A stretch of DNA of 64,000 bases, taken from contig JBAZKJ010000002.1 of the NCBI GenBank assembly GCA_041650855.1, forward strand, positions 284,280-348,279. The letters run 5' to 3'. The position numbers were made by a program, and so were the translations under genes. Below the pieces are notes generated by a model, which was given only the letters and a program-made list of their open reading frames with translations, was not told the origin of the DNA and did not search any database. Source of the DNA: Candidatus Margulisiibacteriota bacterium (GTDB taxonomy: Bacteria > Margulisbacteria > WOR-1 > O2-12-FULL-45-9 > XYB2-FULL-48-7). Positions 21,153-55,879 of this stretch are shown piece by piece (position 1 is the first letter of the stretch; every line of letters starts with the position of its first letter).

Positions 21153-21848
21153 TTATAACCGGATCGGCTGGCTGAGCGAGAAGAATATCCCTTCGGCAAA
21201 GAGAGCGTCGGTGATCCGGTAGCTGCCGTAGCCGATGGTCATCCCGGTCCTGCCGCCCGGCAGGGTTGGATCGCTTTCCACGCCGCCGTAGAATTGAAAC
21301 CCGATCCCCCCCGAACGATTATTGGTGCCGAAGAGGTTGAGCGACAACGCGGTGCCGACGTACGGGGTCATCCCCAGAAAAGATCTCTCCCGCAGAAAAA
21401 GCGTGGCGCCCAGATTGAGCGGCAGGGAGAACATGGCCTGGCTGTTGAGCCCGTTGCCGATTACCAGGCCGAGTCCGGTCTCGTATTCCAGCGCGTCTTC
21501 GGCCAGACCGAGCAGCGCCCCCAGCTTAGAGGGATCGTGGAATACTATATTGCAGCCGCCGCCGACCAGGCCAAACAAGCCTTGCTGGCCGGTCCGGTTA
21601 TAGAGGTAAAGGCCGCTGAGCCGGGCGTCCAGCGAGCGGCCGAACACGCCGCGCTCGCGTTCGTATTTTTGGTATTCAGCGGCGGGTGAGGCCGGCGGCT
21701 CATTGAGCGTGCCGTTGGCCGCGTCCGGGGGCGGCAGCGGGGTCGTTTGCGGCGCGAAAGCGGGCGGCGCGTTCACGCCCCAGGCGGCCGAGCAACAAAG
21801 CAATAATACCAGGGCCAGATGGTTTTTCATCCACGGCAAGAATATCAA
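21153..21848 (-). CDS. Secreted / putative outer-membrane protein
   Basis: Signal peptide (…LALVLLLCCSAAWG), Pro-rich linker, then a Gly/aromatic-rich region with alternating hydrophobic residues. The true start may be MKNHL at 21830. Confidence 0.45.
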   Translation of the reverse strand: MIFLPWMKNHLALVLLLCCSAAWGVNAPPAFAPQTTPLPPPDAANGTLNEPPASPAAEYQKYERERGVFGRSLDARLSGLYLYNRTGQQGLFGLVGGGCNIVFHDPSKLGALLGLAEDALEYETGLGLVIGNGLNSQAMFSLPLNLGATLFLRERSFLGMTPYVGTALSLNLFGTNNRSGGIGFQFYGGVESDPTLPGGRTGMTIGYGSYRITDALFAEGIFFSLSQPIRL

Positions 21849-21872
21849 TTTTGTAGTACAATATCAAGGAAG

Positions 21873-39981: not shown

Positions 39982-40009
39982 TATAATAACCGGCAGACCC
40001 GCAAAAGGA

Positions 40010-41974
40010 GTGACGATCGTGAAGAAAACGACCTGGGCCATTATTCTGCTCCTCTCTCTGGCCGTGACCGCTTTTGCCGCTGAACCGAAAGACGCCTCGG
40101 ACCAGACCAAAGCGCTCAATGCCGCGCTGCGGCAACAACTTCCTTTTAATAATAATGAAGATTTTGCCGATGCCGCGCGTGGTTTGATCACCGCGGAAAC
40201 CGGCCTGATCGTTCGCGACGATCAGGGGAAGGCGGTCTGGGACCTGCAGCAGTATGCTTTCCTGGACGGCGACCCGGCTTGTCCGGACACCGTCAACCCG
40301 AGCCTTTGGCGCCATGCCCGGACCGACTATATTCACGGCCTCTTCAAGGTCACGGATCACGTTTATCAGGTGCGCGGTTACGATCTGTCCTGCATCAGTT
40401 TTATCGAGGGCAAGACCGGTTATATAGTAGTTGACCCGCTAGTCTGCGCCGAAACTGCGAAAGCGGCCCTGGCGCTGGTCCATAAGCACGTCGGCCAGAA
40501 ACCGGTCGTGGCCGTGATCTACACCCACAGCCATGTTGACCACTGGGCCGGCGTCAAGGGGGTCGTGTCCGAAGCGGACGTTAAAGCGGGAAAGGTCAAG
40601 ATCATCGCTTCGCAAGGTTTTCTGGAGGAAGCGGTCAGCGAGAATGTCATGGCCGGGAACGCGATGTCGCGCCGGGCAGCATACATGTACGGCAACTTGA
40701 TCCCGAAAGGGCCCAGGGGGCAGCTGAACGCCGGCCTTGGCCCGACGGTCTCGCAAGGCACGATCACCATCATCGCGCCGACCGACGTCATCAAGAAGAC
40801 CGGGGAGACGCGGACGATCGACGGGGTCAAGATCGTCTTCCAGTATACGCCGAACACGGAAGCGCCGACCGAGATGAACTTCTATTTCCCGCAGTACAAG
40901 GCGCTCTGCATCGCGGAGAACTGCGTCCACACCCTGCATAATCTTTACACGCTGCGCGGCGCCAAGGTGCGCGACGCCAAGTCGTGGGCTTATTTCCTGA
41001 ACGAAGCGATCGACCTGTTCGGCGGCCAGGCCGACGTCATGTTCGCCAGCCACCACTGGCCGAGCTGGGGGAGCGAAAAGATCACCGGCATGCTGGCCAA
41101 ACAGCGCGACGCTTATAAATATATCCACGACCAGACGCTCCGCCTGGCCAATGAAGGATTGAACATGGTCGAGATCGCCGAGCAGATCAAATTGCCGGAG
41201 ACGCTGGCGCAGGCGTGGTATAACCGCGGTTACTACGGGACGGTCAACCACGACAGCAAAGCGGTCTACCAGCGGTACCTCGGCTGGTTCGACGGCAACC
41301 CGGCGACGCTTGACCCGCTGACACCGGTTGCCGCCGGCAAGAAATACGTCGAGTTCATGGGCGGCGCCGAGGCGGTCATCAGTAAGGCGAAAAAGGAGTT
41401 TGTGAAAGGGGAATACCGCTGGGTTGCCCAGGTCCTGAACCACGTGGTCTTTGCCGATCCGGGGAACAAGGCGGCGCGCGAGCTGGAAGCGGACGCGCTG
41501 GAACAGCTCGGCTACCAGGCCGAGTCCGGCGTTTGGCGCAACTTTTATCTGACCGGGGCGCGCGAGCTGCGCGCCGGGATAGTCAGGATCCCGGCCAAGA
41601 CGAATAGCCCCGACGTCATCGGCGCGATGTCGCTCGACATGATCTTTGACTTCATGGCGATCCGCCTGAACGGCCCGCAGGCGAACGGGAAGACGATCAG
41701 GATCAACTGGGTCCTGACCGACACCGGCGAAAAATATCTGCTGACGGTGGCCGATTCGGTCTTAAACTACTTCCCCGGGAAGCAGTCCGCTAAGGCGGAC
41801 GTCACGGTCACGCTCAAACGCTCGACGCTGAACGAAGTGCTGTCGGGGGTGGCGTCGTTCAAGAACAAGATCGTTGCCGGCCAGATCAAGATCAAAGGGA
41901 ACATCTTTAAGCTTATCGAGCTGATGGAGCTGCAGGACAAGTTCGACCCGAACTTTAGGATAGTCGACCGGTAA
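40010..41974 (+). CDS. Alkyl/aryl-sulfatase-like metallo-beta-lactamase-fold hydrolase (SdsA1/BDS1 family)
   Basis: Signal peptide, THSHVDHWAG MBL metal motif, and C-terminal SCP2-like dimerisation region. 654 aa. Confidence 0.7.
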   Translation: MTIVKKTTWAIILLLSLAVTAFAAEPKDASDQTKALNAALRQQLPFNNNEDFADAARGLITAETGLIVRDDQGKAVWDLQQYAFLDGDPACPDTVNPSLWRHARTDYIHGLFKVTDHVYQVRGYDLSCISFIEGKTGYIVVDPLVCAETAKAALALVHKHVGQKPVVAVIYTHSHVDHWAGVKGVVSEADVKAGKVKIIASQGFLEEAVSENVMAGNAMSRRAAYMYGNLIPKGPRGQLNAGLGPTVSQGTITIIAPTDVIKKTGETRTIDGVKIVFQYTPNTEAPTEMNFYFPQYKALCIAENCVHTLHNLYTLRGAKVRDAKSWAYFLNEAIDLFGGQADVMFASHHWPSWGSEKITGMLAKQRDAYKYIHDQTLRLANEGLNMVEIAEQIKLPETLAQAWYNRGYYGTVNHDSKAVYQRYLGWFDGNPATLDPLTPVAAGKKYVEFMGGAEAVISKAKKEFVKGEYRWVAQVLNHVVFADPGNKAARELEADALEQLGYQAESGVWRNFYLTGARELRAGIVRIPAKTNSPDVIGAMSLDMIFDFMAIRLNGPQANGKTIRINWVLTDTGEKYLLTVADSVLNYFPGKQSAKADVTVTLKRSTLNEVLSGVASFKNKIVAGQIKIKGNIFKLIELMELQDKFDPNFRIVDR

Positions 41975-44901
41975 TGGCGAGATATTTCTGGACGGCGCTG
42001 TTCTTGCTCTGTTGCCTGGCGCCGCTCCAGGCCGCGACTTACGAAAGCCAGGCGCTGCTCAACGGGACCAACCTGGCGGATTTCATCGGCGACCATCTCG
42101 GTTTTCTCTACGATAGCCACGGTTGTTTGCATTTTACCCCTTCCGATATCTACCTTTTGGTCAGAACGGTCCCCAAAGGGGCGAAGCTGACGATCAAAAG
42201 TTACAATCAGAGAACGCTGCCGGACGGCTACGCGGCGGCGCCGGTCTTCAGAAAACTGGTCACGACCCGGGGCGACGTCAATAAATATGCCGATATGTTC
42301 AAGAAAGGGAACGCCCGGCTGGTCGTTTATCCCGGGCTCGGCCAACTATTTGTCCTGGTCGGCGACCAGCCGCTGGTCAAGATGAAGACGTCGCCCGGTC
42401 CAGCCCAAGACTACCGGCTGGTTTTCTCTGCCGACCCGGACGGGCGGATCGGTTGGGATAGCTCGCTTTCCACGCCGACCGACCCCGGCGACTATAAGAT
42501 CCTCGGGACGACCGCTCATTACCTCAGTAACGCTTATCGCGATATCACGATCGTGCCGTTCGGCGGCTGGCTGGTCAAGCAGAAAGGGAACTGGGTTTTC
42601 CAGAACGACGACCGCAAGTGGTACCAGGCGCCCGGTTTCATTGCTAACGATCTGAACCAGCCGTATGGCCAGCAGACGGAGAACTATCTCGATATTAATC
42701 TGGATAAACAGGGGAAGATAACCGGCGCCCGCTGGGCGGGGAACGATTTCGGCAAGTACGCGCTCCTCTGGACGGTGGACGGCCGGAACCGCTATCCGGA
42801 GCTGGGTTACTGCGAAGGGCAGCTCCTTTATGAACAATCGGTCTTGATCAAGGACCTCGCCCAGCTTTTAACCGTGCCGGGCCCCGATTCGTTGGAGGCG
42901 TGCATTGCCGGGAATGAGAACTTCAAGCTCTACCGCGCCGTTCATGATTTTCTGGTATCCAGCGGCGAGGTCGCGGCGGCGAGCCTTGATCCGGTTTCCT
43001 GCAGTTATGTGAAGCTCTTTAATGGTTTTCCCTTGAACGCGGCCGATAAAGTGAATATCGACGACCGGGTGGAAAAAGCGTTCCGTGATCAACGGGCGGG
43101 GAAATATCCGCTGCTGCCCGATCAAAAGCAGCGCCAGCTCGGCTTGTATAACTTTGTCCGCGATTACGATAATGTTTTTGACAAGAACGCCGGCTGGTAC
43201 GTCATGGTCCGCGACCACTGGGACGTCTTGAGCGATTTACGGGCCAAGCTGCGCCGCGATTATAACGCCTTTGGCCTGTACTCTCCGGATAACCGGGTCA
43301 TCGCCTTGGAGCGGTTCTTGAACGACCGGCTGGAGTTCCGCCAGGTCGTTATCCCCAAGCGGGGCAAGCCGCGGTTGACCTTTGCCGATTTTGCCAGCAC
43401 GGCGGAAGAACAGTCGATCTTCAACGCCCGGGAGAAAGAGGCGCTCCGCGGCCTGATCCGCGCCGCCGCCTCGGGGGAAACGGCGGTGCCGGAGATCTCT
43501 TCAGTTCAGGCGCTCAACGACTACAACTTCGGCGTCCTGCTTAACGCGATGCTGGGCAACTTATATAAAAGCCACGGCTGCATGCACGTCTCGCCGCTTA
43601 ACGTTTATATATTGAACAAAGTCCTGCCGGTCGGCGCCCGGATCACGATCAAGCCGTACGCGGAGAAAGCGCCGGCCGGGTACGATAAGCTCCCGTTCCT
43701 AGCGGAGATGGTGAACTTCAACGACGATCTTACCGGCCTGGCGGCGCAGTTAGCCGATCCGGGCTCCGTCAGGGCGATAGTCTATCCGGGATCCAACTTA
43801 TGGATAATTTCTTTAAAAGATAAACCTTTTGCCCGGATGATGATCGAAGCCGGTTTCCAGCAGAAGGTCAATATCATGCAGGGGCGGGACAAGAACGGTT
43901 ATCCGCTGTTCGCCAAGGACATCGCTTACCCGACGCCCCCCGGCAGTTATTCCGTCTTGCGGAAGGTCGATAATTACGTTTCCAACCTTTATTACGACAC
44001 GACCGTCGTGCCGCAGGGGGCGCAGCTGAAGAAGACCGGCGGCAACTGGTCGTACCGGAAAACGGACGGCAGCTGGGGAAACGTGCCGGACGCGATCAAC
44101 GACGACTTGAACGGGTCGCGCCGGGAACGGACCTACGAATATTACGACCTGGGACGGGACGACAACGACAAGCTGGTCCGCGCGAAGTGGGGGAGCAACA
44201 CTTTCGGCCGCTTCCCGATCCTGCTGACCAAAGACGGCCGGACGCCGGCTCCCGAGCTGGTCCACACGACCGGCGACCTGATGATGGAACAGCGGCGGCT
44301 GGTCGGCGACCTGATCAGGGTGATGGCCTCGACTTTTGAGAGCTTTAACGCCGCGACCGCGGCCAGCCGGAACTTCGATCTCTACACGATCTGCTACCAG
44401 TTCACGCAGGACCCGCAGCGCGCCGACCTGCTTGAGCCGATCGAAAGCGGCAGCTACAAAGCTTATCTGGACCTGCCGCTCAATGCCGACGAGCAAGCGG
44501 CGCTGCCGCCCGATGTCATTGCCTGTTTTAAGCTATACAAGGGGAAAGAACCCCTGACCCAGGCGGAAGCGGACCTGCTCGTCAGGGAAGGATTGGCCCG
44601 CTGGCAGGGGGGAACTTTGAAGGTCGATGACGCCAAGGCCTACGGGGTCCTGTACGACCTCTATCAATACGTCGTTTCGATCAGGAAGAATGCCAATATA
44701 TACTCGACCCTGCAGGACAACTGGAACGCGCTGGCCGATATCCGCCAGGCGATGCTCCGGGACCTGGGCCGGCTCCGGATCAAGGACCCGGCCGTTTTTG
44801 CCGAACTGATGCGGGAGCTGATCACCGAACGGGCGCAAATGGAGCGGTTGACCCAAAAGGACGCATACCGGATACTCGACGAACAACTCGAAGACAATTG
44901 A
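41974..44901 (+). CDS. Large secreted protein with tandem L,D-transpeptidase-like modules (paralog 2)
   Basis: Signal peptide; both modules retain SHGC (YDSHGCLHFTP and YKSHGCMHVSP). Same internal-duplication architecture as 21873-24617. Confidence 0.6.
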   Translation: MARYFWTALFLLCCLAPLQAATYESQALLNGTNLADFIGDHLGFLYDSHGCLHFTPSDIYLLVRTVPKGAKLTIKSYNQRTLPDGYAAAPVFRKLVTTRGDVNKYADMFKKGNARLVVYPGLGQLFVLVGDQPLVKMKTSPGPAQDYRLVFSADPDGRIGWDSSLSTPTDPGDYKILGTTAHYLSNAYRDITIVPFGGWLVKQKGNWVFQNDDRKWYQAPGFIANDLNQPYGQQTENYLDINLDKQGKITGARWAGNDFGKYALLWTVDGRNRYPELGYCEGQLLYEQSVLIKDLAQLLTVPGPDSLEACIAGNENFKLYRAVHDFLVSSGEVAAASLDPVSCSYVKLFNGFPLNAADKVNIDDRVEKAFRDQRAGKYPLLPDQKQRQLGLYNFVRDYDNVFDKNAGWYVMVRDHWDVLSDLRAKLRRDYNAFGLYSPDNRVIALERFLNDRLEFRQVVIPKRGKPRLTFADFASTAEEQSIFNAREKEALRGLIRAAASGETAVPEISSVQALNDYNFGVLLNAMLGNLYKSHGCMHVSPLNVYILNKVLPVGARITIKPYAEKAPAGYDKLPFLAEMVNFNDDLTGLAAQLADPGSVRAIVYPGSNLWIISLKDKPFARMMIEAGFQQKVNIMQGRDKNGYPLFAKDIAYPTPPGSYSVLRKVDNYVSNLYYDTTVVPQGAQLKKTGGNWSYRKTDGSWGNVPDAINDDLNGSRRERTYEYYDLGRDDNDKLVRAKWGSNTFGRFPILLTKDGRTPAPELVHTTGDLMMEQRRLVGDLIRVMASTFESFNAATAASRNFDLYTICYQFTQDPQRADLLEPIESGSYKAYLDLPLNADEQAALPPDVIACFKLYKGKEPLTQAEADLLVREGLARWQGGTLKVDDAKAYGVLYDLYQYVVSIRKNANIYSTLQDNWNALADIRQAMLRDLGRLRIKDPAVFAELMRELITERAQMERLTQKDAYRILDEQLEDN

Positions 44902-44909
44902 GGCGTTAA

Positions 44910-46136
44910 ATGCTCATTAAGTTGGCGTGGCGTAATATTTTCCGCAATTTCCGCCGGACTTTCTTTACCTTTATTGCTATTGCGATCGGCCTGGGACTGA
45001 TGCTGCTGGCCGACTCGATGCTCTCCGGGATCGATGCCCAATCTTTCGCCAAGATCATTGATTATGAGACCGGCCACGTTAAGATCTTCCAGCGCGGTTA
45101 CCAGCAAGATAAAGATAATCTGCCGCTTGATAAATTGATCACCGCGCCGGCCGGGGTGATCGATACTGTCCGCCGCGACCCCGCAGTTGCCGGCGTCACT
45201 TCCCGGGTCAACTTCCGGATCATGCTTTCCGACCGGATCGACCAGATCCCGGCGATCGGCATTGCCGTTAACCCGGCCGATGACGAGTCGGTCTTTCTGT
45301 TGAAGCAGGGGTTAACGCAAGGCGAGTTCCTGGTCAGCTCCGAAGAGGCGATGCTGGTCGGCAAGAAGCTGGCCGATGATTTTGGGGTCGGGGTCGGCGA
45401 CTACCTGACCGTTCTGGCCAGGACCAAATACGATACTTACCAGGCGCTCGACCTCCGGATCAAGGGGGTCCTGCAGACCGAGGATCCCCAGATCGACTGG
45501 TATTCGATCGTCATCCCGCTCGACGTCGGCCAGAGCTCGCTCGACCTGAGCCGGGGTGTCACAGAGATCGACATCAAGTTGAAGGATATCAACGCAGTCG
45601 ACCAGTTCAAGAATAAATTGGCCAAAGAACTTCCCGGCTTAGAGATCGCCACCTGGAAAGAGATGGCCGAAGATGTCCTGGCCATCTCCAAGGCAAAATA
45701 TTCCGGCACCTTCACGATCTTCGGCTGCATTGTTTTGATCGCCCTGATCGGCATCACCAACACGATCCTGATGGCCGCCTTTGAGCGGGTCAAGGAGATC
45801 GGGATGATGGGGGCGATGGGGATGAAACGCGGCCAGATCGTCCGGCTCTTTGTCCTGGAAGGGACAATGATCGGCCTGCTCGGCAGCATCACCGGTTGCA
45901 TCCTTGGCGCTCTGCTGATCGGTTTCTGGATGGTCCCGTACGGGATCGATTTTTCCGCCTTTATGCGGGAGATGGGGCCGATCGGCTACCGGACCACCGG
46001 CAAGTTCACCGGCCAGTGGCATCTGATCATGTTTCCGGTCGCTTTTATCTTTGGTCTGGTCGTGTCAGCCTTGACCAGTATTTATCCGGCCAGAGTGGCT
46101 TCACGAATGGAGCCGAGCGAGGCGTTGAGGAAATAA
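44910..46136 (+). CDS. ABC transporter permease, FtsX/MacB/LolE-like (type A)
   Basis: 4 TM helices, large periplasmic loop, FtsX C-terminal domain. 408 aa. Confidence 0.75.
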   Translation: MLIKLAWRNIFRNFRRTFFTFIAIAIGLGLMLLADSMLSGIDAQSFAKIIDYETGHVKIFQRGYQQDKDNLPLDKLITAPAGVIDTVRRDPAVAGVTSRVNFRIMLSDRIDQIPAIGIAVNPADDESVFLLKQGLTQGEFLVSSEEAMLVGKKLADDFGVGVGDYLTVLARTKYDTYQALDLRIKGVLQTEDPQIDWYSIVIPLDVGQSSLDLSRGVTEIDIKLKDINAVDQFKNKLAKELPGLEIATWKEMAEDVLAISKAKYSGTFTIFGCIVLIALIGITNTILMAAFERVKEIGMMGAMGMKRGQIVRLFVLEGTMIGLLGSITGCILGALLIGFWMVPYGIDFSAFMREMGPIGYRTTGKFTGQWHLIMFPVAFIFGLVVSALTSIYPARVASRMEPSEALRK

Positions 46137-46137
46137 G

Positions 46138-47361
46138 ATGTTCAGATTAGCTTTAAGGAATGTTTTGCGCAATAAAAGGCGGTCGTTCCTGACCGGGCTC
46201 TCGATCGCCTTCGCGGTGATGGTCGTCATCTTTCTCTGGACGTTCGTTTCCGGGATCATCAGCGGGATGTTCCAGAATTACGTGACCAATTCGGTCGGCC
46301 ATATCCGGATCATGAACGCCGATTATCGGAAAAGGGAGACGATGCTGCCGCTTAGCGCCACGGTTTATAATTACCAGAATGTCATCAATCAGATCGAACG
46401 GGACCCGAACGTGAAGCTGGCGACCGGCCGGATCAAGTTCGGCGTCCTGATGGATATCAAGGGGAGGAACAAGCCGGTCCTCGGCGTCGGCCTTGATCCG
46501 GTCAAGGAAGAGTCGGTCATCGGTCTGTCAGGCAAAATGGTGTCCGGTAGGATGTTCGCCGGCGGGACCAGCGAAACGGTCGTCGGCCTCGGCCTGGCCA
46601 AAGAGTTGGGCCTGAAAGCGGGCGACACGCTCACGGTCATCACCCAGACGGCGCACGGCTCGCTCTCCGGCTTGAACCTGAAAGTCGCCGGCATCTTTAG
46701 CCTCGGTGTCCCTTCGATCGATAACCGGACCTTCTATTTGCCGCTTAATCAAGCGCAGCAGCTCCTTGACCTCGATGGCCGGGTGACCGAGATCTTTTTG
46801 CTGATCAGGGATCATGATCGGGCGGTCGAAGTGGCAAAAAAGCTGGACAAGACCTTGCCGTCCGGACTAATTGCCGTGCCGTGGCAGGCGAACGGCTTTT
46901 TGTTCTACATGATGGTGCTGATCAAGTACATGTACGCCGGGATCTACGCCTTCATCCTTCTCCTGGCCAGCTTCACCATTCTCAACACGATGTTCATGGC
47001 GGTCATGGAGCGGACGCGCGAGATCGGGATGATGAAAGCGCTTGGGATGAAAGAAGGGGAGATCGGCCGGCTGATCACTTTGGAAGCGTTGATTCTCGGT
47101 GTAATGGCTAGTCTGGCCGGCGCCGCCGGTGGAACACTGCTCGCTTATTACGTCAGCACTGCCGGGATCGATTATACGGCGGCTTTTAAGAGCATCAGGG
47201 ATATCGAGATCCCGCTCTCTTATGTTTACAAAGGAGAATTCAGCTGGCTGACGATCGGGACCGGTTTTCTGATGGGAGTGTTTTTTTCCGTTCTGGCCTC
47301 GATCTTGCCCGCCCGGCGGGCAGCCAAACTGGAGCCAACCGAAGCGATGAAAGCGGGTTGA
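46138..47361 (+). CDS. ABC transporter permease, FtsX/MacB/LolE-like (type B)
   Basis: 407 aa FtsX-fold permease. Confidence 0.75.
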   Translation: MFRLALRNVLRNKRRSFLTGLSIAFAVMVVIFLWTFVSGIISGMFQNYVTNSVGHIRIMNADYRKRETMLPLSATVYNYQNVINQIERDPNVKLATGRIKFGVLMDIKGRNKPVLGVGLDPVKEESVIGLSGKMVSGRMFAGGTSETVVGLGLAKELGLKAGDTLTVITQTAHGSLSGLNLKVAGIFSLGVPSIDNRTFYLPLNQAQQLLDLDGRVTEIFLLIRDHDRAVEVAKKLDKTLPSGLIAVPWQANGFLFYMMVLIKYMYAGIYAFILLLASFTILNTMFMAVMERTREIGMMKALGMKEGEIGRLITLEALILGVMASLAGAAGGTLLAYYVSTAGIDYTAAFKSIRDIEIPLSYVYKGEFSWLTIGTGFLMGVFFSVLASILPARRAAKLEPTEAMKAG

Positions 47362-47408
47362 CGAGTTTCCGTTCCGGCCTATAATTGTCGGTAACAGGGG
47401 GAGATAAC

Positions 47409-48104
47409 ATGGCAGTCGTTAAAATGGAAAATGCGGTCAAGAACTATAAGGTAGGGAAGCTGGAGGTGCCGGCTTTAAGGGGGATCAACTTGGCGATCGA
47501 AAAGGGGGACTTTGCCGCCATTGCCGGCCCGTCCGGTTCCGGCAAGACGACAATGCTCAACCTGTTCGGCTGTCTCGACAAGCCGACTGGGGGGAAAGTC
47601 TTTATCGAGGAGCACGATATCATCACCCTGAAACCCGACCAGCTGGCCGACGTCCGGAACGAACATATCGGTTTCATCTTCCAGAGCTTTAACCTGATCC
47701 CGGTCCTGACCGCGTTTGAGAACGTCGAATTCCCTTTAATTCTCTTAAAAAAGGACGGGCCGGGCATCCGCAAGAAGAAAGTGATGGAGATGCTGGCTTC
47801 GGTCGGCATCGCCGATCTGGCCAACCGACTGCCCAGCGAAATGAGCGGCGGACAGCAGCAGCGGGTGGCGATCGCCCGGGCGCTGGTCAAGAATCCCGAT
47901 TACGTCCTGGCCGACGAGCCGACGGCGAACATCGATACCAAGACCGGCCACGAGATCCTTGATCTGATGCAGGCGATGAACAAGAACCTCGGCACGACGT
48001 TCATCTTTTCCACCCACGATCCCAAAGTGATGGAGCATGCCCGGCGGCTGATCCGCGTCCGCGACGGACAAATAGAATCGGATGTTGCTCAAGCTGGCGT
48101 ATAG
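47409..48104 (+). CDS. ABC transporter ATP-binding protein (LolD/MacB-NBD-like)
   Basis: Walker A GPSGSGKTT, signature LSGGQQQRVAIARAL, Walker B VLADEPT. GGGGGAG RBS. Start at MAVVKMEN. Confidence 0.88.
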   Translation: MAVVKMENAVKNYKVGKLEVPALRGINLAIEKGDFAAIAGPSGSGKTTMLNLFGCLDKPTGGKVFIEEHDIITLKPDQLADVRNEHIGFIFQSFNLIPVLTAFENVEFPLILLKKDGPGIRKKKVMEMLASVGIADLANRLPSEMSGGQQQRVAIARALVKNPDYVLADEPTANIDTKTGHEILDLMQAMNKNLGTTFIFSTHDPKVMEHARRLIRVRDGQIESDVAQAGV

Positions 48105-49305
48105 AAATATCTTCCGTAATTTCCGGCGGACGCTGTTGACCCTGTCGGCGCTGGCCTTTGCCATTTTAATGTTGATCATCTTCGATTCTTACTTTAAAGG
48201 CCTCGATCTTAAAACCTATGAGAAAATAATCAATTACGAAAACGCCCACCTCAAGTATTTTCCGCAAGGTTACAAGGAAGATATCGATAATTTGCCCATC
48301 GAGAAAGCTTTTGACCCGGCGCCGGTGCTGGCGGTCTTGCGGGCCGACCCGCTGGTCCAGGCGGCGGCGCCCCGGCTCAGCTTTCGTTCGACGTTGTCAA
48401 ACGGCGTCGACCAGTTGCCGGCCGTCGGGTTGGCGGTCGATCCGGCCCAGGATCAGACCGTTTTTACGATGAAGCAAGCGGTTAATCAGGGAGAGTATCT
48501 GGCTGGGGCCGAAGAAGCAATGGTCGTTGGCGCTGACTTGGCGAAGGATTTCAATGTTAGTCCGGGTGATATGCTGACCGTTCTCTGCCGGACCAAGTAT
48601 TCGACTTTCCAGGCGCTCGATCTGCCAATTAAGGGGGTTATCAAGAGCGATGACTATGCCATTGATACGAACTCGATCATTGTCCCCCTGGGGTTGGCCC
48701 AACAAGCGCTGGATCTGGGGCAGGGTGTGACCGAAGTTAATATTTTACTGAAAGATGTCAAACAGATCGACGCTTTTAAGAAGCAATACGCTGGCCGCTT
48801 CCCCGGCTTGGAACTCTGGACCTGGAAAGAAGTGGCGGAAGATGTTGTCGCCCATTCCGAATCTCATGCCATGAGCAAGAACATCATTTTCGCCTGCATA
48901 ATCATTATTGCGCTGGTCGGGATCAGCAATACTATCCTGATCGCGGCGTTCGAGCGGACGCGGGAGATCGGCATGCTTGGCGCCATGGGGATGAAGCGCC
49001 GGCAGATCGTTGGGCTTTTTGTCCTGGAAGGGACGATGATCGGGGTGGTGGGGAGCGCGCTCGGTTGTCTGGCCGGATTATTGCTGGTGGTATTCTGGAC
49101 CACCCGGTTCGGTTTTGACCTTTCTTTCGCGATGAGGGACTGGGGCAATATTGGTTTTCGGACCGGAGTGTTTTTAGGCGCCTGGAATCTTGACCTGATC
49201 CCGCAGGTCTTTGGTTTCGGAGTAGTGGTCGCCTTGCTGTCCAGCATCTATCCGGCGCTGGTCGCTTCGCGCCTGGAGCCGACCGAGGCCTTGAGAAAAT
49301 ATTAG
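48082..49305 (+). CDS. ABC transporter permease, FtsX-like (type A')
   Basis: 407 aa. N-terminus MLLKLAYRNIFRNFRRT is near-identical in pattern to 44910. Confidence 0.75.
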   Translation: MLLKLAYRNIFRNFRRTLLTLSALAFAILMLIIFDSYFKGLDLKTYEKIINYENAHLKYFPQGYKEDIDNLPIEKAFDPAPVLAVLRADPLVQAAAPRLSFRSTLSNGVDQLPAVGLAVDPAQDQTVFTMKQAVNQGEYLAGAEEAMVVGADLAKDFNVSPGDMLTVLCRTKYSTFQALDLPIKGVIKSDDYAIDTNSIIVPLGLAQQALDLGQGVTEVNILLKDVKQIDAFKKQYAGRFPGLELWTWKEVAEDVVAHSESHAMSKNIIFACIIIIALVGISNTILIAAFERTREIGMLGAMGMKRRQIVGLFVLEGTMIGVVGSALGCLAGLLLVVFWTTRFGFDLSFAMRDWGNIGFRTGVFLGAWNLDLIPQVFGFGVVVALLSSIYPALVASRLEPTEALRKY

Positions 49306-49306
49306 G

Positions 49307-50530
49307 ATGAATTTTATCTTAAAGCTGGCGATCAGGAATGTTTTCCGCAATACCCGGCGGTCGATACTGACCGGCGCTTCGATCATGTTTTCGGTGGCGA
49401 TCTTGATCTTTGCCTGGTCGTTTATCGAAGGAACGGTCAAGGACATGTCCGACGCTTATATCCGGTTCCAGAGCGGGCATGTCCGGGTCTTGACCAAAGA
49501 GTTCGCCAGGCGTGAAAAGATGTTCCCGCTCCAGTATTCGATCGCCGATTATCGCGCGGTGCAGCGGCAGATCGCGGCCACTCCCGGGATCAAGACCGTT
49601 ACCGGCCGGCTCAAGTTCGGCGTCCTCTTGGATTACGCGGGGAATACCAAGCAGACGTTGGGCATGGGGATCGAACCGGCGGCGGAGGAGTCGATCCTTG
49701 AGCTTAATAAGAATATTGTGCAGGGACGGGTGATCCGCGCCGGCACAGACGAAGTCAATATCGGAGTGAACATGGCCAAGGACCTTAAACTTAAGCTGGG
49801 GGACATCTTAACGGTTGTGACCCAGACCGCCTACGGTTCCTTGAGCGCCAAGAACTTTACCGTGGTCGGGATCTTTAATTTTTCTTCGCCAACCATTGAT
49901 CGGAAGGTCTTTTTGATCCCGATCGAGAGCGCGCAGTATTTGCTCGAACTCCCGGGCAGCGCCAGCGAGATTTTCATTATCACCGAAAAAGCCGATGCCG
50001 CCCGCCGGGTGGCGTCAATGATCGCCGCCACGCTCGGACCGGGTTATAAAGTAACCGCCTGGCAGGACCAGAGCTCAATTTATATGTTTCTGGTCCTGAT
50101 CAAGTATCTGTACCTTATTATCTTGATCCTGATCGTTTTACTGTCCGCTTTTACCATTCTGAATACTATGTTCATGACGGTGCTGGAGCGGACGCGGGAG
50201 ATCGGGATGATGAAGGCGCTGGGGATGACCAACCGTCAGTTGATAATTATGGTGCTGCTGGAAGCGCTGGTGCTGGGCGCCTTGGCGAGTGTAATTGGGA
50301 TGTTTTTGGGTGCCGCTTTGAGCTACTATATGAGCATTTACGGCCTGGACGTGACTGCTTCCGTCGAGAAAATGGATTTTCCGACCTTTACTGTTTATTA
50401 CTGCGATTTCAGCTGGACCTATGTTTTCAGCGGTTTTGTGGTCGGCATGGCTTGTGCCGTATTGGCGGCGGTCTTTCCCGCTTTGCGGGCGGCAAAATTA
50501 GAACCAACGGAGGCGTTACATGAAATATAA
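49307..50530 (+). CDS. ABC transporter permease, FtsX-like (type B')
   Basis: 407 aa; paralog of 46138. Confidence 0.75.
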   Translation: MNFILKLAIRNVFRNTRRSILTGASIMFSVAILIFAWSFIEGTVKDMSDAYIRFQSGHVRVLTKEFARREKMFPLQYSIADYRAVQRQIAATPGIKTVTGRLKFGVLLDYAGNTKQTLGMGIEPAAEESILELNKNIVQGRVIRAGTDEVNIGVNMAKDLKLKLGDILTVVTQTAYGSLSAKNFTVVGIFNFSSPTIDRKVFLIPIESAQYLLELPGSASEIFIITEKADAARRVASMIAATLGPGYKVTAWQDQSSIYMFLVLIKYLYLIILILIVLLSAFTILNTMFMTVLERTREIGMMKALGMTNRQLIIMVLLEALVLGALASVIGMFLGAALSYYMSIYGLDVTASVEKMDFPTFTVYYCDFSWTYVFSGFVVGMACAVLAAVFPALRAAKLEPTEALHEI

Positions 50531-51290
50531 ACTCGCGATCCTGATGATCTGGGTGCTGGGGACCGGGTGCTGGGGGATCACGGGGGAGGAAATAATCAAT
50601 AAGGTCGACGCTAATATGACGTTCAAGACCGCCCGGTCGGAATCGAAGATGGTCATCCATGTTGATCAGGAAGTCAGGGAGAAGACGATGATCGGCTATG
50701 ATAAGGGGACCGATACGGGCTATGCTGAATTTCTCTCTCCGGCCAGGGACAAAGGGGTCAAGTACCTCAAGATCAAGGATAATATGTGGATGTACCTGCC
50801 GTCGGTCGATAAGATCATCAAGATCTCCGGGGCGATGCTCCGCCAGTCGATGATGGGCTCTGATTTTAGCTACGAGGATGCATTGGAGAGCAGCAAGCTG
50901 CTGGAAAAATACACCGCCACACTGATCTCCGAAGAGGTTGTCCCGCTTACTTTTCGCGAAGGGGAGAAGCTGGTCCGCCGCCAGCGGCGTTGCTATGTGG
51001 TTGACCTGACCGCCAAGGTCAAGGATGTCACTTATTTCCGCCGGGTCGTTTATGTCGATAAAGAACTGTTCGTCCCGGCCCGGGAAGACCTGTTCGCCCT
51101 CTCCGGAAAAAAATTAAAAGAAATGACCATGGGGGATGTGCGGCGCTATGGGGTGCGTTATTATCCGACCTACATGACGATGAGCAACCTGCTGCGGGCG
51201 AATTCCCAGACCGAACTGTTCACCACCAAGATCGAGTTCGACCTGCCTGTCGATGCCAAGGTCTTTACCCAGGGCAATTTGACAAAGTGA
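50520..51290 (+). CDS. LolA-like outer-membrane lipoprotein-sorting-family protein
   Basis: Signal/lipobox (…LGTGC), 256 aa; resembles LolA-like proteins that co-occur with FtsX/ABC modules. Confidence 0.5.
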   Translation: MKYKLAILMIWVLGTGCWGITGEEIINKVDANMTFKTARSESKMVIHVDQEVREKTMIGYDKGTDTGYAEFLSPARDKGVKYLKIKDNMWMYLPSVDKIIKISGAMLRQSMMGSDFSYEDALESSKLLEKYTATLISEEVVPLTFREGEKLVRRQRRCYVVDLTAKVKDVTYFRRVVYVDKELFVPAREDLFALSGKKLKEMTMGDVRRYGVRYYPTYMTMSNLLRANSQTELFTTKIEFDLPVDAKVFTQGNLTK

Positions 51291-52369
51291 GAAGACTGCT
51301 GGTGATAGGGGTCGGGTGGTGGATACTGGGGAGCGTGGCGTTCGGGCTGCAGCTTGCCGGTTCCTACGAGAACGACCTGCTGACCCTGCTCAAGAAGAAC
51401 GGCAGCGCCGGGCTTGGCGACCTGAACAAACTCCGGCTGAAGCTCGACCAGCAAGCCGGGGATAATTTGGCCATCCACCTTGAGCCCCGCTATTATTTCC
51501 TCGCCAAATCGCAAGCGATCTTGGTCACCGGCGCGACCGACCTGGACCAACTGGTCTTTGACCGGGCTTATGCCAAATACCGGACCGATCTTTGGTCGTT
51601 GACCGCCGGCAAACAGCGGATCGCCTGGGGGACCGGCTATATCTGGAACCCGGTCGACATTTTTAACCCGATGGTCCTCTCCTTCGCCGTCCGCGATGAA
51701 GATAAGACCAATGTCGAAGCGGTCCGCCTGGAAGTGCCGGTCGGTGAAGCGGGCGGGGTCGATGCGTTCGTAGTCGCGGGAAAACCCTGGGAGCAAACGG
51801 GGAGAGGGTTGCGGGTAAAGGGGAACACCGGATCGTTCGATCTGGCACTCAGCTACGTCGACCAGGGGACGCTCGGGCATCAGGTCGGTTTAGAAACAGC
51901 CGGCGATATCATTAAAGATGTCGGGGTAAGGGGAGAGATCGCGGTCAAGACCGTTCCGGGCCTGAACGGGTATGTCGCTCAAGCGGTCGCTGGCGGCGAT
52001 TACACGCTCGATAACGGGATCGGCCTCAACTGCGAGTATTATTACAACGGCCTTGGTAGCCGGAACAGCGGCAATTATAACTGGGGAACGGCGGAATCGG
52101 TCGGCATGGATTATCTCTATCTTAGCGGCAATAAGATCATCGATGAGATCACGACCGTTACTGTTTCCTTGTTGACCAACCTTGATGACCAGAGCTACAT
52201 GGTCTACCCGCAATACGCCCGCAATATCGGCCAGAACCTCGACTTATACCTGGAGGGGATGTGGCTGGGCGGTCCGGACGGGTCGGAATTCGTGCCGCCT
52301 TCTTCGGCTGATCCGCTCGGTTTCGGCGGGAGCAAGATGGGGCTTGTCCGGCTCGTTTACTCATTTTGA
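51287..52369 (+). CDS. Putative outer-membrane beta-barrel protein
   Basis: Signal peptide, beta-strand-rich sequence, C-terminal aromatic (…LVRLVYSF). 360 aa. Confidence 0.4.
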   Translation: MRRLLVIGVGWWILGSVAFGLQLAGSYENDLLTLLKKNGSAGLGDLNKLRLKLDQQAGDNLAIHLEPRYYFLAKSQAILVTGATDLDQLVFDRAYAKYRTDLWSLTAGKQRIAWGTGYIWNPVDIFNPMVLSFAVRDEDKTNVEAVRLEVPVGEAGGVDAFVVAGKPWEQTGRGLRVKGNTGSFDLALSYVDQGTLGHQVGLETAGDIIKDVGVRGEIAVKTVPGLNGYVAQAVAGGDYTLDNGIGLNCEYYYNGLGSRNSGNYNWGTAESVGMDYLYLSGNKIIDEITTVTVSLLTNLDDQSYMVYPQYARNIGQNLDLYLEGMWLGGPDGSEFVPPSSADPLGFGGSKMGLVRLVYSF

Positions 52370-52413: not shown

Positions 52414-52917
52414 ATGGCAACAGCCATGGCTGCATACGAATTCGACCGAGTTTATCTGGACCACAAGGACCAGGTCTGGCGCCTGGTTAATAAATATGTT
52501 GCCGGGCAGCATGACCGGGAGGACCTTTTTCAGGAGGTCTTTCTCAAGGTCCATCAGGCCTTGCCGAAATTCCGCGGCGACTCTTCCCTGGAGACCTGGC
52601 TCTACCGGCTCACGGTCAACACGGCGATCAATTACGTCAAGAAACAGAAACGCTATAAGCTTTTTTCCGTTCTCCTGGCCGGTTTAAGGTTCGAAGAGAG
52701 CATCCCGACATCGGACGTTGAAGCGACCAGCCTGCTCAAGCCGTTAGAGAAGCTCAACCCGCGCCAGCGGACCATTTTATTGCTGGCTGACGTCGAAGAG
52801 TACAAACTCGAGGAAATCGCCCGGCTAATGGAGTTGCCGGTCGGAACGGTTAAATCAAACCTGGCCCGGTCCCGGGCGATCATGCAAAAGGAGTTGAAGC
52901 AAAATGACCGATTATAA
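52414..52917 (+). CDS. RNA polymerase sigma-70 ECF-family sigma factor
   Basis: Region 2 (…DLFQEVFLKVHQALPKF…) and region 4 (…EEIARLMELPVGTVKS…). 167 aa. Confidence 0.8.
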   Translation: MATAMAAYEFDRVYLDHKDQVWRLVNKYVAGQHDREDLFQEVFLKVHQALPKFRGDSSLETWLYRLTVNTAINYVKKQKRYKLFSVLLAGLRFEESIPTSDVEATSLLKPLEKLNPRQRTILLLADVEEYKLEEIARLMELPVGTVKSNLARSRAIMQKELKQNDRL

Positions 52918-53185
52918 CGAATACCTGAAAGAGTTGAAAAAGGTCAGGGGTCCGTTCGATTCCGATCGGCTCTACCGCGCGATCAAGCAACGGGCAACTG
53001 TTAGGTCGGTCGCCTGGGTTTGGCCGACGGCGGTCTCGCTGGCCGGCGCGGTAGCCGTGCTTTTGGTCGGCCTGGTCTTTTTTGTCAACCTGGAGACCGG
53101 CAGTGACGAGACGATCGCCAGCTACCTGAACGAAGGCCAAGCCATTAACGGCAGTCCGCTGATTAGTTATGTTTTCGGCGAGTGA
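52904..53185 (+). CDS. Putative anti-sigma factor (single TM)
   Basis: 93-aa protein overlapping the sigma gene's 3' end, with one TM helix. Confidence 0.4.
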   Translation: MTDYNEYLKELKKVRGPFDSDRLYRAIKQRATVRSVAWVWPTAVSLAGAVAVLLVGLVFFVNLETGSDETIASYLNEGQAINGSPLISYVFGE

Positions 53186-53186
53186 G

Positions 53187-53215
53187 GGAACCTTTGCGTG
53201 ACTTGGCTTGTCTAA
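53187..53215 (+). promoter_or_regulatory. ECF (sigma-E-type) promoter GGAACC-N17-GTCTAA upstream of the spy-like / tolC / macAB genes
   Basis: -35 GGAACC at 53187-53192 and -10 GTCTAA at 53210-53215. Confidence 0.55.
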
Positions 53216-53247
53216 TCTGGCAGGATGGGTTTAAAGGAGGAAATAAT

Positions 53248-53694
53248 ATGAAAGTGATAATTAAGTCGGTAGCGTTAGCCTTGCTGGTGCTGGTCTTTAG
53301 CACCGCCTCTCTGGCGGCCCCGTGGTGGGGCGGCAAAGAGAGAAAGCGCGATCCGGGCAAACAGATCGCCCAGCGGTTAAACTTAACTGCCGCCCAACAG
53401 GCGCAATTCAAGACGGCCAGGGAGAAGCTGGAAAAGGAGAACAAGCCGTTATTCGACAAGATCAAGGAGCGTTCCGATAAATTACGGAGTGAGCTGGAAA
53501 AAGACAAGCCGGACCAGCGGCTGATCGAACAGTCGATCAAGGAGATCAACGGCTGGCGGACCGAGATCGAGATCAAACGGGTCAAGTCGTTGCTGGAGCT
53601 CAAGGCCAGCCTGACGCCGGACCAGCGGCAAAAATTCCAGGGGATGATGCGGCCGCCGCGCCCGCGCGGGTTTGGCCGCGGACCGCAGAAGTGA
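53248..53694 (+). CDS. Periplasmic Spy/CpxP-family (LTxxQ) stress protein
   Basis: Signal peptide; LNLTAAQQAQFK and LTPDQRQKFQ LTxxQ motifs. AAAGGAGG RBS. Confidence 0.6.
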   Translation: MKVIIKSVALALLVLVFSTASLAAPWWGGKERKRDPGKQIAQRLNLTAAQQAQFKTAREKLEKENKPLFDKIKERSDKLRSELEKDKPDQRLIEQSIKEINGWRTEIEIKRVKSLLELKASLTPDQRQKFQGMMRPPRPRGFGRGPQK

Positions 53695-53708
53695 TAGAAT
53701 AAACCAAG

Positions 53709-54941
53709 ATGTCCTGGCAGAGAACACTGACGATCGTTTGGGCCGCTGTCTATCTGGCGGCGTCCGCCTCAGCGCTCACCTGGCCGGAAGCGCTCAAACT
53801 GGCGCAGCGGAACAATCCGGAACTAAAGAGCGCCCGCAAACAGACCGAGGTGGCGCAGTGGAGCCTGTACCGCAGCTATTCGTCTTTCCTTCCCCAACTT
53901 TCGGCCAATGCTTCGACCGGCCAGTCGACCTCAGGAACCCCGGCGACGACGGCCAACAGCTCGTCTTACGGTTTAAGCGTCTCCCAGACGCTCTTTGCCG
54001 GCCTGGATAACTATTATAGCGCCCAGTCGGCCCGGGCCAGTTACGATTATTATCAAGCGGCCCTGCAAAAAGCGGAAGCCGACGTCTATTATCAGCTCCG
54101 GCAGGCGTTCGTCGACCTGGCGCTGGCCGACGAGAACGTCACCCTCTACCAGCAAATACTGGAGCGCCGGAAAAATAACAGCGATCTGATCGGGCTCCGC
54201 TACGACAGCGGCCGCGAAGACAAAGGGGCGCTGCTGCGGACGCAAGCCGACCAGGCCGATGCCGCCGCCGCCGTGACCGCGGCGGAAAGGGCCCAGACGT
54301 TGGCCGGCCTTAAGCTTTCCCAGCTCATCTCCGCGGAAGCGGCAAAGGCCGACGGCGAACTGGCCGCCAACAGCCTGGCCGTGCCCGATTACGGCCAGCT
54401 CCTGGCGGCGGCTCCGGCCAACGCGATGAACCTGAAACAATTAGAAAGGGCCGAGATCGCGCTGCGGCAGACGATCGGCGAGTTCCTGCCGAACGTTTCC
54501 CTGAGCGGTTCGTACCGCAGAAGCGGCACCGATTGGCCGCCGCAGAGCAACAGCAACAGCTGGTCGCTGAACCTGTCTTATTCATTGTTCCCGGGCGGGG
54601 CGAACATTGCGGATCGGGTCATTTATACGGCGCAGTACGATCAGGCCAAACAGGATTTCCAGAACGCCAGCAACGACCTCCGCTACGGCTTGCAGTCCGC
54701 TTACCAGGCGCTGCTCGACGCGCTCGAGACGGAAAAGACCGCCCAGCTGTCGCTCTCTGCCGCCGCCCTGCGGGCGGAGATCGCCCGGACAAAGTACATC
54801 AACGGCCTGGTCAGCTACGACGAATGGGACCGGATCGAGAACGACTACATCAGCGCCCAGCGGAATTTATTATTACGGAAGAAAGCGGCCCTTTATGCCG
54901 AAGCGGCGTGGTACAACTCATACGGAGGTTACGTTAAATGA
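53709..54941 (+). CDS. TolC-like outer-membrane efflux protein
   Basis: Signal peptide and two OEP repeats. 410 aa. Confidence 0.7.
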   Translation: MSWQRTLTIVWAAVYLAASASALTWPEALKLAQRNNPELKSARKQTEVAQWSLYRSYSSFLPQLSANASTGQSTSGTPATTANSSSYGLSVSQTLFAGLDNYYSAQSARASYDYYQAALQKAEADVYYQLRQAFVDLALADENVTLYQQILERRKNNSDLIGLRYDSGREDKGALLRTQADQADAAAAVTAAERAQTLAGLKLSQLISAEAAKADGELAANSLAVPDYGQLLAAAPANAMNLKQLERAEIALRQTIGEFLPNVSLSGSYRRSGTDWPPQSNSNSWSLNLSYSLFPGGANIADRVIYTAQYDQAKQDFQNASNDLRYGLQSAYQALLDALETEKTAQLSLSAAALRAEIARTKYINGLVSYDEWDRIENDYISAQRNLLLRKKAALYAEAAWYNSYGGYVK

Positions 54942-55879
54942 AAATCAGAAATTTGGGGGTCTTGTTCGTCGGGGTTTTAATGCTGACTTCCTGCGCTCCT
55001 AAGAAAGAGGTCCCGCTCGAGCTGGTGAGCGCCGCCAAGGGGGATATCGAATCGAGCATCCCGGCAACCGGCACGGTGATGCCGCGCAATCGCCTGGAGA
55101 TCAAGCCGCCGGTCGCCGGCCGGATCGAATCGGTCCTCGTCAGCGAGGGGCAGGAAGTTTACAAAGGACAGATCATCGCCTGGATGAGCTCGCTCGACCG
55201 GGCGACCTTGATCGATGCCGCCCGGGCCAAGGGGGAAGAAGAGGTCAAGCGGTGGGAAGAAATGTACAAACCGACGCCGGTCATCGCGCCGATCAACGGT
55301 TTCATTATCCAGCGGGGCGTGGAAGCGGGGCAAAGTCTGACCAGTAACGACGTTGTCCTGGTGATGGCCGATAAATTGATCGTTAAGGCGTCGATCGACG
55401 AGACCGACATCGGCCGGATCAAGGTTGGCCAGCAGGTCAAGATCGTCCTAGATGCTTATCCCAAAGAAGAGATCAACGGGAGCGTGGAGCATATCGCCTA
55501 CGAATCCAAGGTCGTCAGCAATGTCACCGTTTACGAAGTGGACGTTATCCCGGATACCGTGCCGTCATTCTTCCGCGCCGGAATGAGCGCCACGGTCAAT
55601 TTTTCCCAGAACGCTCGGGCAGGGGTCCTGACCGTGCCGCTCAAGGCGATCAAGAAGCGGGGTAAAGCGGTCTACGTTTTCAAGCCGAGCGCCGATAACA
55701 AGACCGCTCAGGCAGTCCAGATCGAGACCGGGCTGGAGAACGGCGACAACATCGAGGTCATTTCCGGCCTGGCCGAGGGGGAGAAAGTGGCCGTCCCGAC
55801 CAAAGCGATGACCGACGCGCTTTCCCAGCGGCGCGGCCCGCCCAATCTGAATCCCTTCGGTACCCAGCGTAGCCGCTAA
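54938..55879 (+). CDS. macA: Efflux periplasmic adaptor (MacA/HlyD family)
   Basis: Lipobox-like LTSC, biotinyl-lipoyl and beta-barrel domains. 313 aa. Confidence 0.75.
   Translation: MKIRNLGVLFVGVLMLTSCAPKKEVPLELVSAAKGDIESSIPATGTVMPRNRLEIKPPVAGRIESVLVSEGQEVYKGQIIAWMSSLDRATLIDAARAKGEEEVKRWEEMYKPTPVIAPINGFIIQRGVEAGQSLTSNDVVLVMADKLIVKASIDETDIGRIKVGQQVKIVLDAYPKEEINGSVEHIAYESKVVSNVTVYEVDVIPDTVPSFFRAGMSATVNFSQNARAGVLTVPLKAIKKRGKAVYVFKPSADNKTAQAVQIETGLENGDNIEVISGLAEGEKVAVPTKAMTDALSQRRGPPNLNPFGTQRSR

Follow-up and report, generated by a model that had tools for sequence, protein, structure and literature searches.

A 64,000-nucleotide stretch (the window) of a 431-kb metagenome contig from Candidatus Margulisiibacteriota carries a seven-gene operon on its + strand, A-B-D-A'-B'-L-O (positions 44910-52369), in which four FtsX-type permease genes (A, B, A' and B') accompany a single gene for an ATP-binding cassette (ABC) ATPase (D) and are followed by genes for a LolA-like protein (L) and a predicted outer-membrane barrel (O). 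The permeases form two paralogous pairs, and the layout recurs in other genomes. We regard it as probable, though well short of certain, that the operon would encode two alternative heterodimeric transporters, A·B·D2 and A'·B'·D2, working with one ATPase, one carrier and one barrel. Identical or near-identical database counterparts of the window proteins carry the annotation Candidatus Margulisiibacteriota, and the Margulisbacteria are a phylum related to the Cyanobacteria.

Two paralogous permease pairs

The permease genes occupy positions 44910-46136 (A, 408 amino acids, with a GAGG Shine-Dalgarno sequence upstream), 46138-47361 (B), 48082-49305 (A') and 49307-50530 (B'), the last three encoding 407 amino acids each, all on the + strand. 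The initial annotation had described four FtsX-type permeases of about 407 amino acids around one ATPase; the open reading frames (ORFs) are found there to the nucleotide, and the Pfam searches agree. All four proteins match FtsX (66-78 bits, 70.5 for A; cut-off 25.5) and MacB_PCD (52-54 bits, 52.6 for A; cut-off 27), passing the cut-offs of both PF12704 and PF02687. In the alignment an N-terminal LAxRNxxRNxRR motif and an ERxxEIGM coupling motif are present in each of them. The start of B is placed at ATG 46138 since its N-terminal LALRNxxRNxRR motif then lines up with those of the other three permeases.

Global protein identity is 55.4% between A and A' and 46.5% between B and B', versus 26.6-32.5% for pairs of an A-type with a B-type protein (32.5% for A and B). 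These values argue against a simple four-way array of equally related genes and uphold the earlier observation that A resembles A' and B resembles B'. The trees, in which A' groups with A and B' with B, agree. The expression 'tandem duplicated', used for the locus at the outset, is right in that the two paralogous pairs are real, but the duplication is not recent, since the copies are 46-55% identical and are common to lineages whose orthologues are themselves no more than about 60-80% identical.

An AlphaFold2 model of permease A (mean predicted local distance difference test score, pLDDT, of 71, and 85-92 in the periplasmic domain) consists of an N-terminal helix, a first transmembrane segment (TM1), a periplasmic MacB_PCD domain and TM2-4, which is the topology of MacB and LolC. 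Its best fold matches in the PDB are the LolE chains of LolCDE (E 4.5e-24), followed by LolC, MacB, the pneumococcal Spr0694-0695 permease, HrtB and YbbP; a PDB sequence search with the permease agrees with these matches. The permeases and D are thus a type VII ABC (MacB/FtsX superfamily) machine. The scores with more specific models are low. TIGR02212 (lolCE) gives 128, 159, 128 and 158 bits for the four permeases against a cut-off of 362, and the NCBIfam LolE and LolC models give 38-122 bits against cut-offs of 439-540, with scores that do not separate A, B, A' and B'. For this reason the carrier-docking role that LolC plays through its Hook, which was considered for these permeases, is assigned to none of them.

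Operon organisation

The seven genes are one operon. A and B are separated by 1 nt, B and D by 47 nt, and A' and B' by 1 nt, so that B and B' each start 1 nt past the stop codon of the gene before; D and A' overlap by 23 nt, B' and L by 11 nt, and L and O by 4 nt. Abutting and overlapping genes of this kind are consistent with co-translation. The 23-nt overlap, reported in the initial annotation, is confirmed by the positions of the stop codon of D (TAG 48102-48104) and the start codon of A' (ATG 48082), and it is found again at a related locus, L008. The interval first delimited, 44910-50530, does hold the four permeases and the ATPase, but the unit runs on without a gap through L and O to position 52369. 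The earlier description, limited to permeases and ATPase, therefore has to be amended, because the operon also holds genes for a periplasmic carrier and an outer-membrane barrel. There is no gene for a membrane-fusion adaptor (MacA/HlyD) or a TolC-type outer-membrane efflux protein (OEP) within 44910-52369.

The ATPase gene D (47409-48104, + strand) encodes 231 amino acids, in agreement with the gene caller. Its most likely start is ATG 47409, with a GGGGGAG Shine-Dalgarno sequence 7 nt upstream, and not TTG 47385. The protein matches Pfam ABC_tran (PF00005) with 113 bits, and its nearest NCBIfam models are LolD, DarD, MacB-NBD (nucleotide-binding domain), DevA and FtsE. The LolD models themselves score below their cut-offs (TIGR02211, 221.9 bits against 307.75; NF008639, 210 against 360). 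D is the most conserved gene of the operon, with 83-94% identity and dN/dS (the ratio of nonsynonymous to synonymous divergence) of about 0.04-0.09 where dS can be estimated. No second free nucleotide-binding subunit is encoded in the 64-kb window; the other NBD there is that of a fused MacB (55879-57837).

The spacer between B and D contains a candidate promoter of the sigma-70 type at 47358-47385 (+ strand), TTGACG-16 nt-TATAAT, with 11 of 12 consensus positions, whose -35 box overlaps the stop codon of B. This consensus match is the top-scoring site of its kind in a scan of 14 kb. The element is kept at loci L008, L098 and L112, is reduced to a -10-like box at L094, L099 and L105, and is absent where the spacer is short and consists of just the Shine-Dalgarno sequence. 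It could possibly raise the expression of D-A'-B'-L-O.

LolA-like protein and predicted barrel

L (50520-51290, + strand, 256 amino acids) matches PF17131 (LolA_like, now TP_0789-like) with 176.3 bits, the cut-off being 30. This is the one Pfam family matched; PF03548 (LolA) is not among the matches, and no NCBIfam model was found. The closest sequence relatives of L in the PDB, 9tp6, 3bk5 and 3buu, were deposited as 'outer membrane lipoprotein-sorting protein' or as members of the LolA superfamily. A cleavable signal peptide is followed by a conserved mature start, (A/G)|(I/L)TGEEII. Orthologues do not retain the cysteine of the signal peptide, so that L is probably soluble in the periplasm and not a lipoprotein.

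O (51287-52369, + strand, 360 amino acids; about 355-360) has no family assignment by Pfam, no NCBIfam model and no sequence match in the PDB, and was identified by structure prediction alone. The AlphaFold2 model, built with 52 homologues, is an 18-strand beta-barrel (pLDDT 91.8). The protein has a signal peptide and a conserved C-terminal beta-signal ending in YSF. In the number of strands, the signal peptide and the aromatic C-terminal beta-signal it conforms to the 18-strand outer-membrane barrels Occ/OprD, AlgE, Wzi and chitoporin, and it is predicted to be such a barrel.

Related clusters in other genomes

Related clusters were collected from species-representative genomes (78 loci, fetched with an A/A' profile) and from metagenomes (79 loci, fetched with an A' profile), further contexts being added by exact-protein look-ups. 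Every ORF was classified against the seven window proteins. The survey covers the 64-kb window and flanks of up to 10 kb at the other loci, and the counts below are for the complete clusters that include L (n = 54).

Forty-four of the 54 complete clusters have one A-type permease, one B-type permease and one ATPase. The four-permease layout had been called unusual, and it is, two permeases per ATPase being the family norm. The two-permease form occurs in Margulisbacteria, Saganbacteria, WOR-1, Halanaerobiales, Atribacterota, Limnochordia, Spirochaetes, Endomicrobiia and Poribacteria, mostly in the order D-A-B-L-O, with A-B-D-L-O in WOR-1 and some Margulisbacteria. In 6 of the 54, four permeases accompany one ATPase, and about 8 more four-permease clusters are cut by contig ends. 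Each of these clusters, complete or cut, has a single ATPase; four permeases with two ATPases occur in none of the 54.

The idea that all four permeases would join in one larger hetero-oligomeric complex around the ATPase, raised at the outset, has the 4:1 gene ratio as the single point in its favour. It contradicts every solved type VII transporter matched here (LolCDE, MacB, HrtBA, YtrEF and YbbAP), all of which have two four-TM domains per ATPase dimer; the two-permease form is the norm of the family, and lineages that lost A'-B' hold an otherwise unchanged operon. We consider such a complex very improbable. Of the two possibilities first offered, two transporters on one NBD or a larger hetero-oligomer, the former is the more probable.

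The four-permease loci lie on contigs of different assemblies, and their orthologues are 63-88% identical, locus L008 being 88% identical to that of the window. The window order, A-B-D-A'-B'-L-O, is shared by L008, L089/L095, L094, L098, L099 and L101, and by the contig-cut L093, L100, L104, L109 and L140. Two other orders exist, D-A-B-A'-B'-L (L006/L121) and D-A'-B'-L-A-B (L091 and L108). A adjoins B and A' adjoins B' in all three, which argues that the permease pair is the functional unit. On every contig that extends far enough, A'-B' is accompanied by A-B, one D and one L, and it was never seen there without A-B.

The window is part of a metagenome-assembled contig, which might raise the suspicion of an assembly artefact, or else of a recent neutral duplication or of decaying pseudogenes. 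At least seven independent contigs from ENA, NCBI and JGI assemblies carry this order, the DNA of the copies (A/A', B/B') is just 62-64% identical, and none of the four reading frames is broken, all of them evolving under purifying selection. Explanations of this sort are therefore exceedingly improbable.

Several clusters depart from these patterns in other ways. Three permeases with one ATPase, in the order A-D-A-B-L, are found in the Atribacterota loci L040, L045 and L069; in the tree a separate clade unites the additional A copies from L040 and L069, that of L045 having been left out as too short. L146 has the order D-A-B-L-A, another departure from the 2:1 rule. At L152 (2284-13315) two systems stand back to back (L-B-B-D-O and O-D-A-B-L), each with its own ATPase, unlike the window. 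Unrelated small genes or spacers of 0.7-1.7 kb separate A from B at L004 (10324-11957), L009 (3320-4052), L101 and L105. The insert at L004 includes a DUF559 gene, and adjacency of A and B is thus not absolute in the two-permease form. In L002 and L004, relatives from WOR-1/Margulisbacteria, O is followed by trehalose-synthesis genes (Glyco_transf_20, Trehalose_PPase and TreT). A P-type cation ATPase gene flanks the operon at L091 (7391-9295) and L002 (6574-8976). The operon of the window has neither of these surroundings; the 635-aa gene after A-B in L091, considered as a part of the system, is this unrelated ATPase and was set aside.

History of the duplication

In neighbour-joining trees the A' sequences form one clade and the B' sequences another, that of A' comprising the window with L006, L008, L026, L089 and L091. 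Among 100 bootstrap replicates, B' is monophyletic in 100 and non-prime A in 91, while A with A', and B with B', each stand apart from the outgroup phyla in 100. It is this last result that points to duplication of A and B together, as a pair, within the Margulisbacteria group, after its split from the outgroups. The trees of D and L are without a matching deep split; ATPase and carrier would seem not to have been duplicated, or to have lost their second copies.

These trees also bear on how the permeases may associate. They could combine at random, or in fixed pairs of another kind (A·B', A'·B, A·A' or B·B'), giving up to four transporter species on one ATPase. All four carry the LAxRNxxRNxRR and ERxxEIGM motifs, so that any of them could dock on D, and homodimeric relatives exist, namely LolF (PMC11784454) and Borrelia BBJ27 (PMC13078400). 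The A-B and A'-B' junctions, however, are 1 nt or overlapping in all three gene orders, as cognate pairs predict, and the presence of both an A-type and a B-type gene across the family, in the 44 two-permease clusters, argues against homodimers. The agreement of the A and B trees, with separate clades for A' and B' and the full bootstrap separation of both types from the outgroups, speaks against combinatorial assembly as well, and we think it unlikely. Cognate A·B and A'·B' pairs remain our preferred arrangement.

Four loci with close relatives of the window A gene, L009, L105, L110 and L111, have A-B-D-L-O only, which means that A'-B' was lost later from them or inserted later elsewhere. An event between an A-B-D... 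operon and a D-A-B-L-O operon would give the order seen in the window, and both orders exist in the phylum. LolCDE is a possible analogue for the derivation of A-B-D-A'-B' from A-B-D and D-A-B operons.

Selection and divergence of the copies

Comparison of six orthologous four-permease loci with the window shows all four permeases at full length, with dN of 0.08-0.18 and dS of about 0.8-2.0. The resulting dN/dS of roughly 0.1-0.2 indicates purifying selection on all four, with A' and B' the same as A and B. Among the seven genes of the operon, constraint is strongest on D and weakest on O.

Eight A sequences were compared with eight A', and eight B with eight B', all from four-permease loci. 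The cytoplasmic coupling loop, which touches the ATPase in the solved LolCDE and MacB structures, is most alike between the paralogues, with 57-62% of positions conserved and identical in both clades. Conserved differences that set the clades apart run through the whole periplasmic domain and are enriched in the periplasmic TM3-TM4 loop (19-27%). This pattern would fit two pairs that dock on one ATPase and differ periplasmically, and may be taken as supportive of the preferred reading.

Alternatively, one of the pairs might not transport at all and serve as a regulator or mechanotransmitter, in the way that FtsEX serves EnvC, or it might be a condition-specific back-up with the same substrate. 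The type VII class includes non-transporting members such as FtsEX-EnvC (PMC7668044). The candidate promoter ahead of D-A'-B'-L-O could give the two pairs different expression, and the many close relatives that live with A-B alone, such as L009, L105, L110 and L111, are in keeping with this reading. Yet A' and B' retain the full MacB-type periplasmic domain and all the motifs of the family, and their dN/dS does not differ from that of A and B. Moreover, in two of the three gene orders L follows immediately after A'-B', and no EnvC-like or other partner gene stands alongside it. A non-transporting or back-up role for one pair is accordingly quite unlikely in our estimation.

A proposed Lol-like export route

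The operon A-B-D-A'-B'-L-O would encode a Lol-like export route spanning the envelope. In the inner membrane, A·B·D2 and A'·B'·D2 would assemble as alternative type VII transporters with the same D. Each of them would pull hydrophobic cargo (lipid, glycolipid or lipoprotein) from the inner membrane, as LolCDE does, and both would hand it to the same soluble carrier, L. This protein would then bring the cargo to, or through, the outer-membrane barrel O. The two permease pairs would give two cargo specificities on one motor, as is suggested by the finding that they differ mainly in their periplasmic parts. What we infer is which permeases pair, that D serves both pairs, which way transport runs and what the cargo is.

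Several considerations weigh against this scheme. The pairing and the sharing of D are read from gene content and order, and an orphan ATPase may possibly be encoded elsewhere in these genomes, beyond the window and the flanks of up to 10 kb. The coupling-loop motif is kept across the whole FtsX family, which makes the loop argument weak by itself. The membrane helices of the model of A are of low confidence (pLDDT 50-65). A' is monophyletic in just 61 of 100 bootstraps and non-prime B in 14, which leaves the duplication poorly dated; a date at the base of the phylum, once considered, was dropped on account of the latter value. An ancestral duplication with many subsequent losses and a transfer of a diverged A-B pair within the phylum are equally possible. 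Finally, A' served as the query of the metagenome scan, and a single JGI sample family (Ga0315...) supplied most of the four-permease contigs; the frequency of 6 in 54 is therefore that of a biased sample and not a population estimate.

Neighbouring genes

Just upstream of A lies a gene for a secreted protein of 975 amino acids (41974-44901, + strand) with an internal tandem duplication, its halves of about 480 amino acids being 29% identical (E 4e-66). Each half has an SHGC(L/M)H motif and a weak match to YkuD (L,D-transpeptidase); no family clearly passes the cut-off. A 932-aa ORF at 21819-24617 (+ strand) gives the same weak YkuD match, and a homologue of the 975-aa protein is found about 8 kb upstream of the operon in L004/L023. 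Farther upstream, at 37771-41974 on the same strand, tightly spaced genes encode a protein of the AsmA family (736 amino acids) and an alkyl sulfatase with a C-terminal SCP2 lipid-binding domain (654 amino acids). The AsmA-like protein, the alkyl sulfatase and the 975-aa YkuD-like protein were considered as parts of the system and rejected, as they adjoin the operon at no other locus.

Downstream (52414-57837, + strand) are genes for an extracytoplasmic function (ECF) sigma factor, a small putative anti-sigma factor, an LTXXQ/Spy-like periplasmic protein, a TolC-type OEP, a MacA-like adaptor and the fused MacB. The TolC, MacA and MacB genes of this group (53709-57837) are a genuine MacAB-TolC set separate from the operon, and the downstream genes together make up a second, canonical type VII ABC system and a possible envelope-stress module. 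These genes, too, were rejected as parts of the system because they are not conserved beside the operon; the ECF sigma and Spy-like genes alone recur near it, at a few other loci.

Comparison with known systems

Among the known systems closest to the one proposed is LolCDE-LolA of E. coli. The two have in common different FtsX/MacB-type permeases, an ATPase gene flanked by permease genes, a soluble carrier of the LolA-type fold and, in the scheme proposed here, extraction of cargo from the inner membrane; the model of A matches LolE and LolC best. The window differs in having four permeases, a PF17131 carrier, the gene of an 18-strand barrel in the operon and no LolB. It is not a canonical LolCDE, since the equivalog cut-offs of lolCE, LolC, LolE and LolD are all missed widely and the carrier is not of PF03548. 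The D-A-B-L-O clusters of other diderms have orthologous genes and the same operon logic, but one A-B pair only. MacAB-TolC shares the permease fold, whereas the window operon is without a membrane-fusion adaptor or TolC duct and has an unfused ATPase and a soluble carrier instead.

We found no publication that describes the D-A-B-L-O family as such, nor any description of four permeases with one ATPase or of a shared ATPase in type VII systems. The nearest is that of the 'potential export system' BBJ23-29 of Borrelia, from a computational study, with one ATPase, a LolA-like protein, one permease predicted to be homodimeric, an Omp85-family barrel and two tetratricopeptide repeat proteins (PMC13078400). 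It has no permease paralogues on one ATPase, and the barrel of the window is porin-like, with 18 strands. YbbAP-TesA and the duplicated permeases of the ADOP type also belong to the type VII class; with two FtsX domains for each ATPase dimer, they remove hydrophobic compounds from the membrane (PMC12646458). There both FtsX domains are part of a single polypeptide, which keeps the ratio of transmembrane domains (TMD) to NBDs at 2:2; the window has four separate TMD genes and one NBD gene.

Shared ATPases of the MsmK, MceG and FhuC type are typically encoded away from the permease operons that they serve. There, one ATPase gene energises several permease sets (PMC4519317, PMC9947336, PMC10147376). 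Those systems are importers or Mce systems, whereas the window encodes a type VII machine and holds both permease sets in one operon with the ATPase. With one D and two permease pairs at every four-permease locus, gene content would make D a shared ATPase of this kind.

According to a review, diderm Terrabacteria lack the Lol pathway and outer-membrane lipoproteins, with the Halanaerobiales as a possible exception (PMC11784454). A large survey sought LolA by means of PF03548 at its gathering threshold (10.1101/2021.05.31.446380), and carriers of the PF17131 family would escape such a search. The D-A-B-L-O family may therefore have been overlooked in diderm Terrabacteria; we offer this as a lead, not as a result. 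A bolder and distinctly tentative proposal, which we hold to be possible but doubtful, is that D-A-B-L-O is a Lol-like pathway between the inner and outer membranes that has so far escaped notice in diderm Terrabacteria (Margulisbacteria, Halanaerobiales, Atribacterota and others) and spirochaetes, of which the window would have a modular form, its two cargo-specific pairs plugging into a common motor, carrier and barrel. No shared energiser would have been known before it among type VII ABC exporters, if this is true.

Significance

Type VII ABC transporters, among them LolCDE, MacB, FtsEX and YbbAP, serve to construct and protect the bacterial envelope, and LolCDE is a target of antibiotics. 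Two membrane domains per ATPase dimer are the rule in every characterised member. The operon suggests that substrate-specific modules may be swappable on a common motor within this class, for which the MsmK sugar importers and the MceG-driven Mce systems are precedents in other ABC classes. The operon is also a testable candidate for the means by which hydrophobic cargo may cross the periplasm in diderm Terrabacteria.

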